Below, in pieces: positions 11,737-37,800 of a DNA stretch of 41,819 nucleotides. A model generated the notes under the pieces. The model saw only the letters and a list, made by a program, of their open reading frames with translations. It searched no databases and was not told the DNA's origin. How positions within the stretch are numbered: position 1 is the stretch's first letter; each line of letters begins with the position of its first letter. Location: IMG/VR virus record IMGVR_UViG_2721755721_000002. One strand, 5' to 3'. Both the position numbers and the translations under genes were made by a program. Source of the stretch: a virus (lineage: Duplodnaviria; Heunggongvirae; Uroviricota; Caudoviricetes).

Positions 11737-13587
11737 ATGTCGATTAAACATTATGATGTTGTCAGGGCGGCGTCGCCGTCAGACCTTGCGGAAAAGCTGA
11801 CACACAAACTGAAAGAGGGCTGGCAGCCATACGGCGGACCGGTTGCCATTACGCCGTACACACTGATGCAGGCGGTGGCTATTGAAGGAGAGCCACAGGT
11901 CGGCCCTTCATCTGAGCCGGATTGGTACTACGTCATCGTACTGGCCGGGCAGTCCAATGCCATGGCTTACGGTGAAGGGCTTCCGCTGCCGGATTCATAC
12001 GATGCTCCGGATCCGCGCATTAAACAGCTGGCGCGCCGCAGTACAGTGACGCCGGGCGGGGCTGCCTGCAGATATAACGATATTATTCCGGCTGACCACT
12101 GTCTGCATGATGTGCAGGATATGAGTACGCTGAATCATCCGAGGGCTGACCTGAGCAAAGGGCAGTACGGCTGTGTCGGCCAGGGTTTACATATTGCCAA
12201 AAAACTGCTCCCGTATATCCCGAATAACGCGGGGATCCTGCTGGTACCATGCTGTCGTGGTGGTTCGGCATTTACCCAGGGCGCGGAGGGGACATTCAGC
12301 GAGTCCACGGGGGCCAGTCAGGATTCGGCACGCTGGGGGGTGGGCAAGCCGTTATATCAGGATCTGATTTCCCGCACAAAAGCGGCATTGCAGAAAAATC
12401 CCAAAAACGTTCTGCTGGCCGTCTGCTGGATGCAGGGTGAGTTTGACATGAGCGCCGCCACCCACGCACAGCAACCTGCGCTGTTTACAGCCATGCTGAC
12501 ACAGTTTCGTGCTGACCTCTCCGTGTTTAACGCGCAGTGCCATGGTGGCAGCGCTGCAGATGTGCCGTGGATTTGTGGTGACACGACGTATTACTGGAAA
12601 AATACATACGCTACCCAATACGACACCGTGTACGGCGGGTATAAAAACAGGGAGAGTGAGGGCGTTTATTTTGTGCCCTTCATGACAGACGGTAACGGCG
12701 TCAATACCGCCACTAACGCGCCGGCAGAAGATCCGGATATTCCGGCATCAGGATATTACGGTGCGGCATCGAGAACGAATGGAAACCAGGTATCATCAAA
12801 CCGCCCGACACATTTCAGTTCATGGGCGCGCAGGAGCATTATTCCGGATCGTCTGGCAACCGCTATTCTGAACGCAGCCGGGCGCACCTCAGCCTTCATC
12901 AGTGGTAAGGCACCGGAAATCAAACCCTCGCCCGGCGGCAACACACCATCGGGTCCGTCTGCAGATACGTCCGTTCGCACAATCTCCCTGCTGCCGACAG
13001 CCGGAGAGGCTGCTGCGCAGGGCTGGACCATTAAGGACGGCGGAATTCAGTTGTCGGGTGGTGTATTTAAGATCGCCAAGCAGAGCAATAAAACCTGGTC
13101 CCTGACGCATCCGGTGGATGACGCAATTACCCTGCTGACACAGGGCGGCAGACTGACCTGTAAGTTCCGCCTGTCAGGCGCACTGACCAACAATCAGTTC
13201 GGGCTGGGGATTTATCTGTATACGGATGCTCCCGTTCCTGATGGTGTGGCGATGACGGGTACCGGTAATCCGTTCCTGATGTCGTACTTCACTCAGACCA
13301 CTGACGGCAGAGTGAATCTGATGCATCACAGGAAAGCCGGAAACACGAAGCTGGGGGAGTTCGGCGATTACGGTAACGACTGGCAGACGCTGGAGCTGGT
13401 GTTCACCGCCGGCAGTGCCACGGTTACTCCGAAACTGAATGGAGTGGCTGGCCCGGCATTCCAGGTTATAAAAGACAGTCTGACACTGGGACTGAATGCG
13501 CTGACGCTGACGGATGTTACAAAAAATGCAGCGTATGGCGTTGAGATAGAAAGTCTGGTGCTGGAGATAAATGCACCGGCAGCATAA
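11737..13587 (+). CDS. nanS-p: NanS-p-like prophage sialate O-acetylesterase (DUF1737 N-terminus + SGNH/SASA esterase + C-terminal binding domain)
   Basis: 616 aa; N-terminal MSIKHYDVVRAASPSDLAEKL...; esterase motif VLAGQSNAMAYGEG; located between Q/tRNAs and the holin as in Stx-type phages. Confidence 0.8.
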   Translation: MSIKHYDVVRAASPSDLAEKLTHKLKEGWQPYGGPVAITPYTLMQAVAIEGEPQVGPSSEPDWYYVIVLAGQSNAMAYGEGLPLPDSYDAPDPRIKQLARRSTVTPGGAACRYNDIIPADHCLHDVQDMSTLNHPRADLSKGQYGCVGQGLHIAKKLLPYIPNNAGILLVPCCRGGSAFTQGAEGTFSESTGASQDSARWGVGKPLYQDLISRTKAALQKNPKNVLLAVCWMQGEFDMSAATHAQQPALFTAMLTQFRADLSVFNAQCHGGSAADVPWICGDTTYYWKNTYATQYDTVYGGYKNRESEGVYFVPFMTDGNGVNTATNAPAEDPDIPASGYYGAASRTNGNQVSSNRPTHFSSWARRSIIPDRLATAILNAAGRTSAFISGKAPEIKPSPGGNTPSGPSADTSVRTISLLPTAGEAAAQGWTIKDGGIQLSGGVFKIAKQSNKTWSLTHPVDDAITLLTQGGRLTCKFRLSGALTNNQFGLGIYLYTDAPVPDGVAMTGTGNPFLMSYFTQTTDGRVNLMHHRKAGNTKLGEFGDYGNDWQTLELVFTAGSATVTPKLNGVAGPAFQVIKDSLTLGLNALTLTDVTKNAAYGVEIESLVLEINAPAA

Positions 13588-31895: not shown

Positions 31896-32639
31896 ATGAC
31901 ACAGACAGAATCAGCGATTCTGGCGCATGCCCGGCGGTGTGTGCCTGCGGAGTCGTGCGGCTTCGTGGTGAGAACGCCGGAGGGGGAGCGGTATATCCCT
32001 TGTGTGAATATCTCTGCAGAGCCGGAGGCGTATTTTCGTATTGCACCGGAAGACTGGCTGCGGGCAGAGATGCAGGGGGAGATTGTGGCACTGGTCCACA
32101 GTCATCCCGGTGGTCTGCCCTGGCTGAGCGAGGCCGACCGGCGGCTGCAGATAAAAAGTGCACTGTCCTGGTGGCTGGTCTGCCGGGGGGAAATTCATAA
32201 ATTCCGCTGTGTGCCACATCTGACAGGACGGCGCTTTGAGCACGGGGTGACGGACTGTTACACGCTGTTCCGGGATGCCTACCATCTGGCGGGAATTGAT
32301 ATGCCGGATTTTGAGCGTGAGGATGACTGGTGGCGCAACGGTCAGAACCTGTACCTGGACAATATGGAGGCGACTGGTTTTTACAGGATTTCCCTGCCTT
32401 CCGCACAGCCTGGCGATATCCTGCTGTGCTGCTTTGGCGCATCGGTGGCCAATCATGCCGCCATATACTGCGGCAACGGTGAGCTGCTTCACCATCTGCC
32501 TGAACAACTGAGTAAACGGGAGAGGTATTCCGAAAAATGGCAACGACGAACGCATTCAGCCTGGCGTCACCGCCACTGGCACGTATCTGCCTTCACGGGG
32601 ATTTACAACGATTTGGCCGCCGCCTCAGCCTGTATGTGA
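31896..32639 (+). CDS. K: Tail assembly protein gpK-like (JAB/MPN + NlpC/P60-type)
   Basis: MTQTESAILAHARRC.PAESCGFVV.TPEGERY...EIVALVHSHPGG near-collinear with lambda K. Confidence 0.9.
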   Translation: MTQTESAILAHARRCVPAESCGFVVRTPEGERYIPCVNISAEPEAYFRIAPEDWLRAEMQGEIVALVHSHPGGLPWLSEADRRLQIKSALSWWLVCRGEIHKFRCVPHLTGRRFEHGVTDCYTLFRDAYHLAGIDMPDFEREDDWWRNGQNLYLDNMEATGFYRISLPSAQPGDILLCCFGASVANHAAIYCGNGELLHHLPEQLSKRERYSEKWQRRTHSAWRHRHWHVSAFTGIYNDLAAASACM

Positions 32640-33217
32640 ACACGGCAGCGGAAGCCATCCGTGCCCTGTCGATGCAGATGCCGGGATTCCGCCGTCAGAT
32701 GAACGAAGGCTGGTACCAGATACGTATTCGCGGTGAGGACACGGCACCGGAGGCGGTGTACGCCCGTCTTCACGAACAGCTGGGTGAGGGAACGGTCATC
32801 CACATTGTGCCGCGACTGGCCGGGGCCGGAAAGGGTGGACTGCAGATTGTGCTGGGGGCGGCAGCCATCGTGGGCTCTTTCTTCACTGCCGGGGCATCAA
32901 TGGCGTTATGGGGTTCAGCCCTGGCAGCCGGTGGTTTTTCTGCCACCACGATGCTGTTTTCTCTGGGGGCCAGCATGATTCTGGGTGGTGTGGCTCAGAT
33001 GCTGGCCCCGAAGGCTAAAGTACCGGAGTACAAAAGCACGGATAACGGCAGACAGAACACGTATTTTTCGTCACTGGACAACATGATTGCCCAGGGTAAC
33101 CCGATGCCGGTGCCTTACGGGGAAATGCTGGTTGGCTCCCGCCGTATATCCCAGGACATCAGTACCCGTGATGAAGGCGGGGGCGGAAAGGTCGTGGTTA
33201 TCGGGCGGCAGGCATAA
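32537..33217 (+). CDS. I: Tail assembly protein gpI-like
   Basis: ARICLHGDLQRFGRR...QIVLGAAAIVGSFFTAGA...NTYFSSLDNMIAQGN parallels lambda I. Confidence 0.85.
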   Translation: MATTNAFSLASPPLARICLHGDLQRFGRRLSLYVNTAAEAIRALSMQMPGFRRQMNEGWYQIRIRGEDTAPEAVYARLHEQLGEGTVIHIVPRLAGAGKGGLQIVLGAAAIVGSFFTAGASMALWGSALAAGGFSATTMLFSLGASMILGGVAQMLAPKAKVPEYKSTDNGRQNTYFSSLDNMIAQGNPMPVPYGEMLVGSRRISQDISTRDEGGGGKVVVIGRQA

Positions 33218-33336
33218 AAGCGAAAAAATCCCGCAGTGCTCACGGACAGGAACTGCGGGAGCGTTACGAAGATTGAGTGTAAGGAATTATTCTTATGTCA
33301 CGACAAAAACATTAACTCAGAGGTAATGACTCCAAC

Positions 33337-33702
33337 TTATTGATAGTGTTTTATGTTCAGATAATGCCCGATGACTTTGTCATGCAGCTCCACCGATTTT
33401 GAGAACGACAGCGACTTCCGTCCCAGCCGTGCCAGGTGCTGCCTCAGATTCAGGTTATGCCGCTCAATTCGCTGAGTGTAACGCTTGCTGATTACGTGCA
33501 GCTTTCCCTTCAGGCGGGATTCATACAGCGGCCAGCCATCCGTCATCCATATCACCACGTCAAAGGGTGACAGCAGGCTCATAAGAAGCCCCAGCGTCGC
33601 CATCGTGCGTTCACCGAATACGTGCGCAACAACCGTCTTCCGGAGCCTGTCATACGCGTAAAACAGCCAGCGCTGGCGCGATTTAGCCCCGACTAGCCCC
33701 AC
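33337..33702 (-). CDS. insB: IS1 InsB transposase reading frame
   Basis: [34 protein letters not shown]...[42 protein letters not shown] matches IS1 InsB. Confidence 0.9.
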
Positions 33703-33757
33703 TGTTCGTCCATTTCCGCGCAGACGATGACGTCACTGCCCGGCTGTATGCGCGAGG

Positions 33758-34033
33758 TTACCGACTGCGGCCTGAGTTTTTTAAGTGACGTAAAATCGTG
33801 TTGAGGCCAACGCCCATAATGCGGGCTGTTGCCCGGCATCCAACGCCATTCATGGCCATATCAATGATTTTCTGGTGCGTACCGGGCTGAGAAGCGGTGT
33901 AAGTGAACTGCAGTTGCCATGTTTTACGGCAGTGAGAGCAGAGATAGCGCTGATGTCCGGCAGTGCTTTTGCCGTTACGCACCACCCCGTCAGTAGCTGA
34001 ACAGGAGGGACAGCTGATAGAAACAGAAGCCAC
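33758..34033 (-). CDS. insA: IS1 InsA
   Basis: (M)[50 protein letters not shown]... matches IS1 InsA; GTG start. Confidence 0.9.
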
Positions 34034-34154
34034 AGGAGCACCTCAAAAACACCATCATACACTAAATCAGTAAGTTGGCAGCATCACCTAACTCAGAGAG
34101 GGAGGATGTGCCGTTCTTTTCAGGGAGAAAGGATTTATCGTCCTGAGGAATAAA

Positions 34155-34176
34155 GGTAAGGGGCCCGCCCCTTACC
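34155..34176. terminator. GC-rich hairpin downstream of sodC
   Basis: GGTAAGGGG-CCCG-CCCCTTACC perfect 9-bp stem; weak T-run on the minus strand. Confidence 0.4.
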
Positions 34177-34183
34177 TGACTGA

Positions 34184-34711
34184 TTATTGAATGATGCCGC
34201 AGGCCATTCTCGCACCACCACCGCCCAGGGGCTCCGGATGGTCATGATGGTTATCACCGCCAGCATGAAGCATGAGAGAACGCCCTTTAATCTCTTTTAA
34301 TGAGTTCAGTCTCGGGGCCAGGACCGGGTAGTTCGCTTTTCCGTCATGCGTCACGAACAGCGCAGGGAGGTCGCCCAGGTGTCCATCCGGAGACCAGGGG
34401 CCAAGATGTTTGCCGGTGTTTTTCGGGTCAAAGTGACCGCCAGCCGATAATGCTGCGACCGGTTTTCCGTCTTTCAGTGCCGGGGCGCAATTTCCTTTTT
34501 CGTGCACATGAAAACCATGAATGCCTTCAGACAGAGAGTGAAGGGCTGGTGTGAACAGCAGACCGTAGGGGGTCTCCTGAATGGTTATTTTTCCAATGCT
34601 GACTTCTTTTCCGTCAGCACTGACAAGGTTCATTGGGACTTCCTGTTCTGCTGCGTATCCGCATGATGCTGCTGTCAGCATGGCAATGGCAGCAATGATT
34701 TTACATTTCAT
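34184..34711 (-). CDS. sodC: Periplasmic Cu,Zn superoxide dismutase (SodC), prophage moron
   Basis: [20 protein letters not shown] signal peptide; [29 protein letters not shown] are Cu,Zn-SOD signatures. The track ORF runs on to 35218 antisense to J; the real start is the internal ATG. Confidence 0.85.
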
Positions 34712-34844
34712 AAAACCCTCATTAATTCCGTTAACAGACTGAGCTTGCTGGTTACAGGGTAACAAACAGCGTTCTGATGATATCGCGCAATAGCTGTGCA
34801 ATATCCTATCACTGCGATTAATAATACCAATTGAGAGGAACATT

Positions 34845-37800
34845 ATGGGCAAAGGTGGCGGCAGGGCGCACACGCCTCGAGAGGCGAAGGATAATCTCAA
34901 ATCCACGCAGATGATGAGTGTGATTGATGCGATTGGTGAGGGACCGATAGAAGGCCCGGTGAAGGGGCTGCAGAGTATCCTGGTGAACAAAACCCCGCTG
35001 ACGGACACGGACGGTAATCCCGTGATACACGGTGTGACGGCGGTCTGGCGCGCCGGGGAGCAGGAGCAGACACCACCGGAAGGCTTTGAGTCCTCCGGAG
35101 CTGAAACCGGACTGGGCGTGGAAGTGACGAAGGCAAAGCCGGTAACGCGCACCATTACATCCGCGAACATTGACCGCCTGCGGGTCACCTTCGGGGTGCA
35201 GTCACTGTTGGAGACCACCTCAAAGGGCGACCGTAATCCCTCTTCTGTCCGACTGCTGATTCAGTTGCAGCGTAACGGTAACTGGGTGACGGAAAAGGAT
35301 GTCACCATTAACGGCAAGACCACCTCACAGTACCTGGCGTCGGTGATTCTGGAGAATCTGCCTGAGCGGCCCTTTAACATCCGGATGGTCCGGGAGACAG
35401 CGGACAGCACCTCGGACCAGCTGCAGAATAAGACGCTCTGGTCGTCATACACCGAAATCATCGATGTGAAACAGTGCTACCCGAACACGGCGATTGTGGG
35501 GCTGCAGGTGGATGCGGAGCAGTTTGGCGGTCAGCAGATGACGGTGAACTACCATATCCGCGGTCGCATCATCCAGGTACCGTCAAACTATGACCCGGAA
35601 AAACGCACGTACAGCGGCATCTGGGACGGCAGCCTGAAACCGGCATACAGCAACAACCCGGCCTGGTGCCTGTGGGACATGCTGACTCACCCGCGCTACG
35701 GCATGGGAAAACGTCTGGGGGCGGCAGACGTGGACAAATGGGCGCTGTATGCCATCGGGCAGTACTGCGACCAGACGGTCCCGGATGGTTTCGGGGGCAC
35801 AGAGCCGCGGATGACCTTTAATGCGTACCTGTCACAACAGCGTAAGGCGTGGGACGTTCTCAGTGATTTCTGCTCGGCGATGCGCTGTATGCCGGTATGG
35901 AACGGCCAGACGCTGACGTTCGTTCAGGACCGCCCGTCGGATGTGGTGTGGCCGTACACCAACAGCGATGTGGTGGTGGATGATAACGGCGTGGGGTTCC
36001 GCTACAGCTTCAGTGCCCTGAAGGACCGGCACACGGCGGTGGAGGTGAATTACACCGACCCGCAGAACGGCTGGCAGACCTCCACGGAACTGGTGGAAGA
36101 CCCGGAAGCCATACTGCGCTACGGGCGCAACCTGCTGAAGATGGATGCGTTCGGTTGCACCAGTCGCGGTCAGGCCCACCGTGCCGGGCTGTGGGTGATA
36201 AAGACCGGACTGCTGGAAACGCAGACGGTGGATTTCACGCTCGGGTCACAGGGGCTGCGTCACACACCCGGTGACATTATTGAAATCTGTGATAACGACT
36301 ATGCCGGGACCATGACCGGCGGACGTATCCTGTCCATCGATGCCGCCAGCCGCACCCTGACACTGGACCGTGAGGTGACCCTGCCGGAGACAGGTGCCGC
36401 CACGGTGAACCTGATTAACGGCAGCGGTAAGCCGGTGAGCGTGGCCATCACTGCACACCCCGCGCCGGACCGGATACAGGTCAGCACCCTGCCTGATGGT
36501 GTGGAGACATACGGTGTATGGGGACTCTCCCTGCCGTCACTGCGTCGTCGCCTGTTCCGCTGTGTCTCCATCCGGGAAAACACGGACGGCACCTTTGCCA
36601 TCACGGCGGTGCAGCACGTACCGGAAAAAGAAGCCATTGTGGATAACGGGGCCAGCTTTGAGCCACTGTCCGGTTCGCTGAACAGCGTCATCCCGCCGGC
36701 TGTGCAGCACCTGACGGTGGAGGTGAGCGCGGCTGACGGTCAGTATCTGGCACAGGCGAAATGGGACACGCCGCGGGTGGTGAAGGGGGTGCGCTTCAGT
36801 CTGCGCCTGACCAACGGAAGCGGAGAAGACAGCCGTCTGGTGACCACCGCCATCACTGCGGATACAGAGCATCGTTTCAGTGGTCTGCCGCTCGGGGAAT
36901 ACACCCTGACAGTCCGGGCAATTAACAGTTATGGCCAGCAGGGCGAACCGGCCACCACCACCTTCCGGATTAACGCGCCAGCAAAACCCGCCACCATTGA
37001 ACTGACGCCGGGGTATTTTCAGATAACGGCGGTCCCGCGTCTTGCGGTGTATGACCCGACGGTACAGTTTGAGTTCTGGTTTTCGGAGGCAAAAATCGCA
37101 GACACATCTCAGGTGGAAACCTCTGCCCGTTATCTGGGGACCGGCAGTCAGTGGAGTGTATCCGGCCCGCACATTAAGCCCGGGAAGGATTTCTGGTTTT
37201 ACGTGCGCAGCGTCAACCTGGTGGGGAAATCTGCGTTTGTGGAAGTCAGCGGGCAGCCCAGCAATGATGGTGAAGGGTATCTGGAATTTTTCCGGGAAAA
37301 AATAGGAAAACTGCATCTGGCTCAGGGGCTATGGGAGCTGATAGACAACAGCCAGCTTGCGGATGAGATGGCGGAGATGAAGACCACCATCACCGAAACC
37401 CGCAATGAAATCACACAGACGGTCAGTAAAACGCTGGAAGACCAGAGCGCCACCATTCAGCAGATACAGCGCGTGCAGAAGGACACAAATGATGACCTGG
37501 CTGCGCTGTACATGCTGAAGGTTCAAAAAACGAAAGACGGCATTCCCTATGTGGCCGGGATTGGTGCAGGGATTGAGGATACTGATGGCCAGCCACTGAG
37601 CAACATACTGCTGCTGGCTGACCGTATCGCGATGATAAATCCGGAGAGCGGCAACAGCACTCCGTTATTTGTGGCGCAGGGGAATCAGCTGTTCATGAAC
37701 GACGTGTTCCTGAAGCGTCTGTTTGCGGCGAGTATCACGTCATCCGGCAACCCCCCGACGTTTTCCCTGACGCCGGAAGGGAAGCTGACAGCCAGGAACG

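Follow-up and report, generated by a model that had tools for sequence, protein, structure and literature searches.

What lies between the tail genes I and J of this prophage, and what might it do for the bacterium that carries it? In phage lambda the two genes are separated by 60 bp, whereas in the window (the whole stretch of 41,819 nucleotides that was analysed) the gap measures 1,627 bp. A first-pass annotation had placed there an insert carrying a Cu,Zn superoxide dismutase gene (sodC) as a moron in reverse orientation. We have dissected the interval, compared it with related loci, and related the encoded protein to superoxide dismutases (SODs) of established structure and function.

The I-J interval is composite

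The interval and its two neighbours can be resolved into the following elements.

32636-33217, plus strand: gpI tail assembly protein, the upstream neighbour (Pfam Lambda_tail_I, E = 6.4e-16)
33218-33321, no strand: spacer of 104 bp following I, common to sodC-less relatives
33313-33321, no strand: left 9-bp IS1 target-site duplication, TAACTCAGA
33322-34088, minus strand: IS1 element of 767 bp (Pfam Zn_ribbon_InsA, HTH_Tnp_IS1 and DDE_Tnp_IS1)
34089-34097, no strand: right 9-bp IS1 target-site duplication, TAACTCAGA
34098-34844, minus strand: sodC moron cassette, comprising 3′ flank, terminator, coding sequence and 5′ region up to the J start codon
34845-38321, plus strand: gpJ tail tip and host-specificity protein (seven Pfam GpJ domains, full-length at 1,158 aa)

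The start of gpI was set from the 582-bp annotation in near-identical relatives, and gpJ is the downstream neighbour, divergent from sodC. Between them the interval is composite, being made up of the 104-bp spacer, the 767-bp IS1 and the sodC cassette. It had been described as a 1.6-kb insert with sodC as its content; the length is right, but it is not one sodC unit, since 767 bp of it are IS1 and 104 bp are the common spacer. The limits first given to the gene region, 34100-34844, fit those of the true cassette at 34098-34844. The cassette reaches the start codon of J, and it therefore also supplies the ribosome-binding site of that gene.

In an alignment with DEC5E, Z1323CEC0013, G6/7, cM8a and EDL933 the homology of the spacer ends about 2 bp past position 33321, and the flanking homology with sodC-less relatives stops at the sodC cassette. 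The base composition of the cassette is also distinct, with a G+C content of 52.8% in the coding sequence, 39.8% in the upstream region and 47.4% in the 3′ flank, compared with 59.6% in I and 57.9% in J. With I and J adjacent in relatives, its own hairpin terminator and this distinct composition, sodC is a self-contained moron.

The I-J gap behaves as a variable slot, because sodC-less relatives hold other cassettes there, of 235-342 bp (L004:601-942, L005:601-835 and L006:601-940). Some I-J junction short enough to be joined (a gap of <737 bp) was found in 1,783 genomes; the gap is about 230-340 bp in the 30 genomes listed, three of which were inspected and are without sodC. The alternative cassettes share the motif GAAAATGTGAAGATATTCAGA, also seen at L007:1430. 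In the sodC-less cassettes a G+C hairpin with a T-run comes after the motif on the plus strand (e.g., at L004:809); the motif is absent from the window. No gene is annotated in these cassettes, which may specify a small plus-strand transcript.

Directly after the gpI stop codon lies a hairpin (33220-33260; TCCCGCAGT...ACTGCGGGA) that is conserved in the sodC-less relatives L004-L006. The structure at 33229-33260 has its T-run on the minus strand and a folding energy of −16.6 kcal/mol, and thus constitutes a leftward terminator-like site; a terminator scan of the spacer also gave minus-strand matches at 33246-33230 and 33234-33220. The spacer hairpin looks like a leftward terminator that shields I from antisense transcription leaving any I-J cassette.

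A strain-specific IS1 element beside the cassette

The IS1 element has its terminal inverted repeats, the InsA and InsB domains and the 9-bp target duplication, and is 98.7% identical to IS1A of K-12, with 10 differences that include a 1-bp deletion. Its insA gene (33758-34033) is intact. The deletion, near position 33693, breaks insB into two pieces that encode 48 and 121 aa (33693-33839 and 33337-33702), so that the insB′ frame needed for the InsAB′ transposase is not intact; a sequencing error at the deletion is possible.

IS1 was found at this site in none of 5,426 complete E. coli genomes. Queries spanning the site reached a best coverage of 56% or 94%, corresponding to the IS-free arrangement. 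The element is oriented in the same direction as sodC, lies 56 bp beyond the sodC terminator, and was inserted within about 2 bp of the end of homology with sodC-less relatives. It is a later, strain-specific insertion that lies outside the sodC moron.

The sodC product retains every catalytic residue

The features of the gene itself are as follows.

34154-34177, minus strand: intrinsic-terminator-like hairpin with a 10-bp stem, a 4-nt loop and a weak U-tail
34184-34711, minus strand: coding sequence of sodC-F1 (175 codons and a stop), matching the EDL933 gene at 100% identity
34652-34711, minus strand: signal peptide codons (aa 1-20), with a predicted SPase I site after A20
34716-34720, minus strand: Shine-Dalgarno sequence GAGGG, 4 nt before the sodC ATG
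34762-34793, no strand: invariant 32-nt block, identical at 32/32 positions between the window and cM8a alleles

Assignment of the product to the Cu,Zn SOD family is secure. It matches Pfam Sod_Cu (PF00080) with E = 3.9e-32 and 111.9 bits against a cutoff of 28.9, and with 218.4 bits it exceeds the cutoff of 165 set for the NCBIfam SodC equivalog NF007628. Bacterial Cu,Zn SODs of known structure are matched at E about 1e-62, including 1EQW (Salmonella SodCI) and 1ESO (E. coli SodC). These matches, together with the minus-strand ORF at 34184-34711, bear out the original identification of a reverse-oriented Cu,Zn SOD moron between I and J. A longer ORF of 344 aa with a GTG start (34184-35218) was rejected as a gene, being the sodC frame extended antisense into J.

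The residues required for catalysis were located by alignment with human SOD1, whose reference sequence was verified against the PDB. The copper ligands are H68, H70, H93 and H149, corresponding to His46, 48, 63 and 120 of SOD1, and the zinc ligands are H93, H102, H111 and D114, corresponding to His63, 71, 80 and Asp83. All seven metal ligands are thus present, and a complete Cu,Zn superoxide dismutase is encoded. In the same alignment R168 corresponds to the catalytic Arg143 and C171 to Cys146. The ligand residues, R168 and C171, together with C75, are invariant across the window SodC, Gifsy-2 SodCI and Fels-1 SodCIII. C75 was left unpaired with C57 of SOD1 by BLASTP owing to a gap, and we infer its disulfide pairing from the bacterial structures. 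Inactivating mutations in the metal-ligand histidines had been named at the outset as the finding that would count against the gene; there are none in comparison with SOD1, SodCI or SodCIII, and that objection fails because all the metal-ligand residues are intact. Judged by its residues the product is an intact enzyme, and its SOD activity is taken from the literature on an identical protein.

A second prophage allele, of the cM8a type, differs from the window gene at 57 synonymous and 34 non-synonymous codons. This excess of synonymous change is consistent with purifying selection on the gene.

The gene is sodC-F1 of E. coli O157:H7

Alignment with the EHEC and Gifsy-2 genes had been suggested as a check on the annotation, and it gave a clear answer. 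The locus of E. coli O157:H7 EDL933 is 100% identical in DNA sequence to the end of I, sodC and the start of J of the window, its counterpart protein being WP_000649829.1, while the identity to SodCI is 58% at the protein level. The EDL933 comparison used a 1,751-nt query, of which the non-IS1 part forms 975 bp in EDL933 and many other EHEC genomes; the sole difference between the two loci is the 767-bp IS1 of the window.

[quoted passage not shown] The coding sequence, both flanks (in the EDL933 copy) and the I-sodC-J arrangement are the same as in the window. Nucleotide 335 of the window gene is T, so that codon 112 is CTG (Leu112), and the allele is therefore sodC-F1.

The properties of the protein are consequently those already published. 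Purified SodC-F1 has an activity of 19,380 U/mg, compared with 6,290 U/mg for the chromosomal SodC; it is dimeric, resists proteinase K and EDTA, and has a Tm of 78-87 °C (PMC2569942). Its expression does not depend on RpoS and takes place in log phase and under anaerobic conditions, and the protein is detected in lysogens (PMC2569942). Deletion mutants are more sensitive to H2O2, the prophage gene being needed for full resistance, and this phenotype is not additive with loss of the chromosomal sodC (PMC2569942). In bacteria inside Caco-2 cells SodC-F1 is enriched 6.6-fold over SodC; a role in virulence in vivo was not shown for the EHEC enzyme in that study (PMC2569942). The gene is thus the already characterised periplasmic Cu,Zn SOD gene of EHEC prophages, sodC-F1, a correct but ordinary identification. 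There is no sign of a novel type of system at the locus, to which the strain-specific IS1 and the invariant block add little.

Export signal and processing

A signal peptide of its own had been ascribed to the protein, and its N-terminus indeed carries both a Sec signal and a lipobox, in agreement with the location reported for the identical protein (PMC2569942). The signal is of 20 residues, with an n-region MKCKI, an h-region of 11 residues and a c-region CGYA|A, and the mature protein is predicted to begin AEQEV. The lipobox AASC was found as a pattern match (codons 1-17 at 34661-34711). It overlaps the SPase I site, and Cys17 is a possible site of lipidation. SodC-F1 partitions between a soluble periplasmic and a membrane fraction, which fits dual processing by SPase I and, at AASC, SPase II (PMC2569942); the AASC/Cys17 lipobox of the window protein agrees with this dual soluble and membrane location.

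Transcription signals of sodC

The hairpin terminator that had been proposed for the gene is real. The structure at 34154-34177 is G+C-rich, begins 7 nt past the stop codon and has ΔG = −17.9 kcal/mol (z = −2.8). Its T-tail is weak, however (TTATTCCT). It is 81% conserved in the cM8a allele, and the alignment shows compensated changes in the stem. Beyond the palindrome the plus strand reads GACTGATT, and the hairpin is therefore not terminator-like for late transcription. A match to Rfam STnc400 over the 3′ end of sodC scored 23 bits against a gathering score of 80 and is sub-threshold; we treat it as chance because it is not reproduced in EDL933, cM8a, Gifsy-2 or Fels-1.

A promoter had been asserted within 34712-34844, and here the outcome is divided. 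A consensus scan found no σ70 promoter in 34712-34844, and the sole σ70 match in the region is at 34081-34054 on the minus strand, in the end of IS1 upstream of insA. The best candidate from a position weight matrix, TTGGTA-N16-TGaTAGGAT at 34830-34803, scored 10.1, compared with a median of 7.4 and a 95th percentile of 11.3 for shuffled sequences, and it is not conserved in cM8a. On the other hand the 299 bp upstream of the gene drive expression of lacZ (PMC2569942). This fragment comprises the 133-bp intergenic region and 166 bp of J. A promoter is thus presumed to lie upstream of the gene, at a position that the sequence does not allow us to place.

Comparison with the cM8a allele points to a different part of the upstream region. 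Only two prophage sodC lineages were found in complete E. coli genomes in a search with the cM8a allele, and the footprinting therefore rests on a single comparison. The alleles are 79% identical in the coding sequence and 78% upstream. Within the cassette the longest identical run is the 32-nt block at 34762-34793, midway between the divergent start codons of sodC and J. By a rough calculation about 0.06 such runs of 32 would be expected over the cassette at a background of 78%. The Shine-Dalgarno sequence and ATG of sodC also lie within an identical run, of 21 nt. Read on the minus strand the block is CTATTGCGCGATATCATCAGAACGCTGTTTGT, which includes the −10-like hexamer TATCAT (34782-34777). 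By eye we noted in it an FNR/CRP-like half-palindrome, TTGCG-CGAT-ATCAT, and a PhoP-like half-site, TGTTTG; both are weak, and neither is claimed.

We regard 34762-34793 as the best candidate for a regulatory element, its strand and function being a matter of inference. It could be the site of an activator or a repressor, or part of the 5′-UTR, and could underlie the RpoS-independent, host-associated expression of the prophage sodC. The slot between I and J might likewise be more closely defined, since its bounds on the I side may be the conserved leftward terminator and a TAAC(N)CAG boundary, IS1 having been inserted within 2 bp of the latter. That both would hold, the block being a real cis-regulatory element and the gap a defined slot for cassette exchange, is a speculative reading, and one that we are inclined to doubt.

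Relationship to other prophage and chromosomal SODs

Prophage SODs of Salmonella provide further comparisons. The Fels-1 sodCIII (STM0924), like the window gene, lies between gpI and gpJ homologues on the opposite strand, and its product is 60% identical to the window protein with all ligands conserved. Its junctions are unrelated to those of the window, a lambda-like hairpin being kept beside J and only 53 bp separating sodC from I. Its signal peptide, unlike that of the window protein, has no lipobox cysteine. Neither the Fels-1 nor the Gifsy-2 sodC upstream region aligns with that of the window, and no upstream motif shared with Fels-1 sodCIII or Gifsy-2 sodCI was found in alignments of these regions. 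Because the junctions differ and the upstream regions are unalignable, the shared I-J slot is not proof of a shared insertion event with Fels-1. As a separate observation, the tail-fibre region of Fels-1 (L003:385-663) gives a strong match to Rfam isrG, an Hfq-binding sRNA of Salmonella islands that is unrelated to sodC.

The Gifsy-2 sodCI (STM1044) is also a reverse-strand moron in the tail block, divergent from the next tail gene, and the protein comparison given above (58% identity) refers to its product. Its slot is not I-J, however, but lies between a lom homologue (downstream of M) and L. SodCI and SodC-F1 are both dimeric and stable (summarised in PMC2569942). The chromosomal SodC of E. 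coli (1ESO) is of the same family and fold as the window protein (E = 1.4e-56), and is 61% identical to mature SodC-F1 (PMC2569942). In contrast to SodC-F1 it is monomeric, less stable, dependent on RpoS and confined to stationary phase, and is fully soluble (PMC2569942).

Distribution and a second allele

Of the 5,426 complete E. coli genomes, 547 carry the full-length 747-bp cassette (34098-34844), with at least 99% identity in 542 records and up to 5 copies per genome. The cassette is found in addition in two records of Stx2a-converting phages, and bacteria that carry it were isolated from sources that include chicken, dog, panda, echidna and seawater.

The second prophage allele (cM8a/TOE17 type) is rare, occurring in 6 complete E. 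coli genomes. It occupies the same I-sodC-J slot in the same orientation, and is 79% identical in DNA and 80.6% in protein, with the 32-nt block and the Shine-Dalgarno/start region unchanged. Unlike the window it retains in its 3′ flank a GAAAATGTGAAGATATTCAGA... segment known elsewhere from I-J cassettes without sodC. A search of one representative genome per species found no obvious donor and no extra alleles; it gave only chromosomal sodC at no more than 69% identity (Serratia, Pseudomonas and others).

Probable function of the prophage enzyme

We have very little doubt that the feature is sodC-F1, the periplasmic Cu,Zn SOD moron of lambdoid prophages in EHEC, aEPEC and their relatives, and that it acts broadly as follows. 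In the lysogen, where the late operon would be silent, the region upstream of sodC would drive its leftward transcription, and the mRNA would end at the hairpin 7 nt past the stop codon. Read-through in the IS-free ancestor would meet the second, conserved leftward terminator abutting I. The pre-protein would be exported by Sec and then cleaved in one of two ways: SPase I would cut after Ala20 and release the soluble periplasmic dimer, or SPase II would cut at the AASC lipobox and leave a fraction anchored in the membrane. Superoxide reaching or arising in the periplasm would be dismutated by the mature enzyme, and the lysogen would thereby become more tolerant of exogenous reactive oxygen species. 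In lytic growth late transcription would pass antisense through the sodC cassette into J. Such a scheme is the usual one for a moron. Our own contribution to this scheme is gene identity, catalytic residues, signal and lipobox, hairpin, position and population frequency; activity, dimer, stability, dual location, RpoS-independence and the H2O2 phenotype come from the literature on the identical gene.

Three other interpretations have to be set against this scheme. The lack of a detectable consensus promoter might suggest that the ORF is a remnant without activity or a pseudogene that is not expressed. Yet it is intact, every catalytic and structural residue is present, and it carries the synonymous excess relative to cM8a; it is moreover 100% identical to a gene reported to be expressed and active (PMC2569942). 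The pseudogene interpretation is effectively refuted. IS1 might instead have altered the locus, either by a polar effect on J that would cripple the tails and so fix the prophage with its cargo, or by taking sense read-through from sodC before it could arrive at the conserved terminator beside I. IS1 insertions are classically polar, and this one lies inside the late transcription unit between I and J in the orientation of sodC, beside a hairpin with a weak U-tail and at a site free of it in all the complete genomes searched. However, the coding sequence, hairpin and upstream region of sodC are untouched and J is full length. Moreover Q-type antiterminated late transcription, if present as in lambda, reads through terminators. 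We consider an effect of IS1 on the locus improbable.

The remaining question is whether SodC-F serves as a specific anti-phagocyte virulence factor in the manner of SodCI, and not simply as an antioxidant that protects the periplasm of the lysogen in general. Protection from the phagocyte burst had been attributed to prophage sodC genes in the first-pass annotation. That property has been shown for Salmonella SodCI, whereas the EHEC enzyme has survival of H2O2 and the Caco-2 enrichment only (PMC2569942). The identity of 58-60% to SodCI and SodCIII, and the dimeric, protease-resistant and stable character common to SodCI-type enzymes and SodC-F, would accord with such a role, as would the relative enrichment inside Caco-2 cells (PMC2569942) and the fact that sodC travels with T3SS effector cargo, nleB2 being in the same prophage. 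Against this, the sole phenotype in the published study is survival of H2O2 in vitro, not additive with chromosomal sodC loss (PMC2569942), and the cassette is found also in the chicken, dog, panda, echidna and seawater isolates. The upstream region cannot be aligned with that of sodCI, and on inspection no PhoP box was seen upstream of the window sodC. Salmonella SodCI is regulated by PhoPQ, and EHEC is mainly an extracellular, attaching-effacing pathogen. A dedicated anti-phagocyte role is thus possible but rather unlikely, and we favour the general periplasmic antioxidant of the lysogen.

In EHEC and aEPEC prophages sodC is already recognised both as an accessory antioxidant and as a candidate virulence factor, and hundreds of genomes have it annotated. 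The value of the present analysis lies mostly in correct annotation, the dissection of the I-J interval keeping IS1 out of the moron. The invariant upstream block could guide mapping of the promoter or operator, for which the resolution achieved by D'Orazio et al. (2008; PMC2569942) was 299 bp.

Other cargo in the window

The ORF at 40839-41819, which reaches the end of the window, corresponds to the T3SS effector gene nleB2 (981 bp in the closest relative); in that relative nleB2 ends exactly where its match to the window ends. A 616-aa ORF at 11737-13587 has the length and relative position of a SASA-family esterase (nanS-p type) in the same relative, which also has a PerC-family (pch) gene and, further on, remnants of nleC, nleH and nleF beside zinT.
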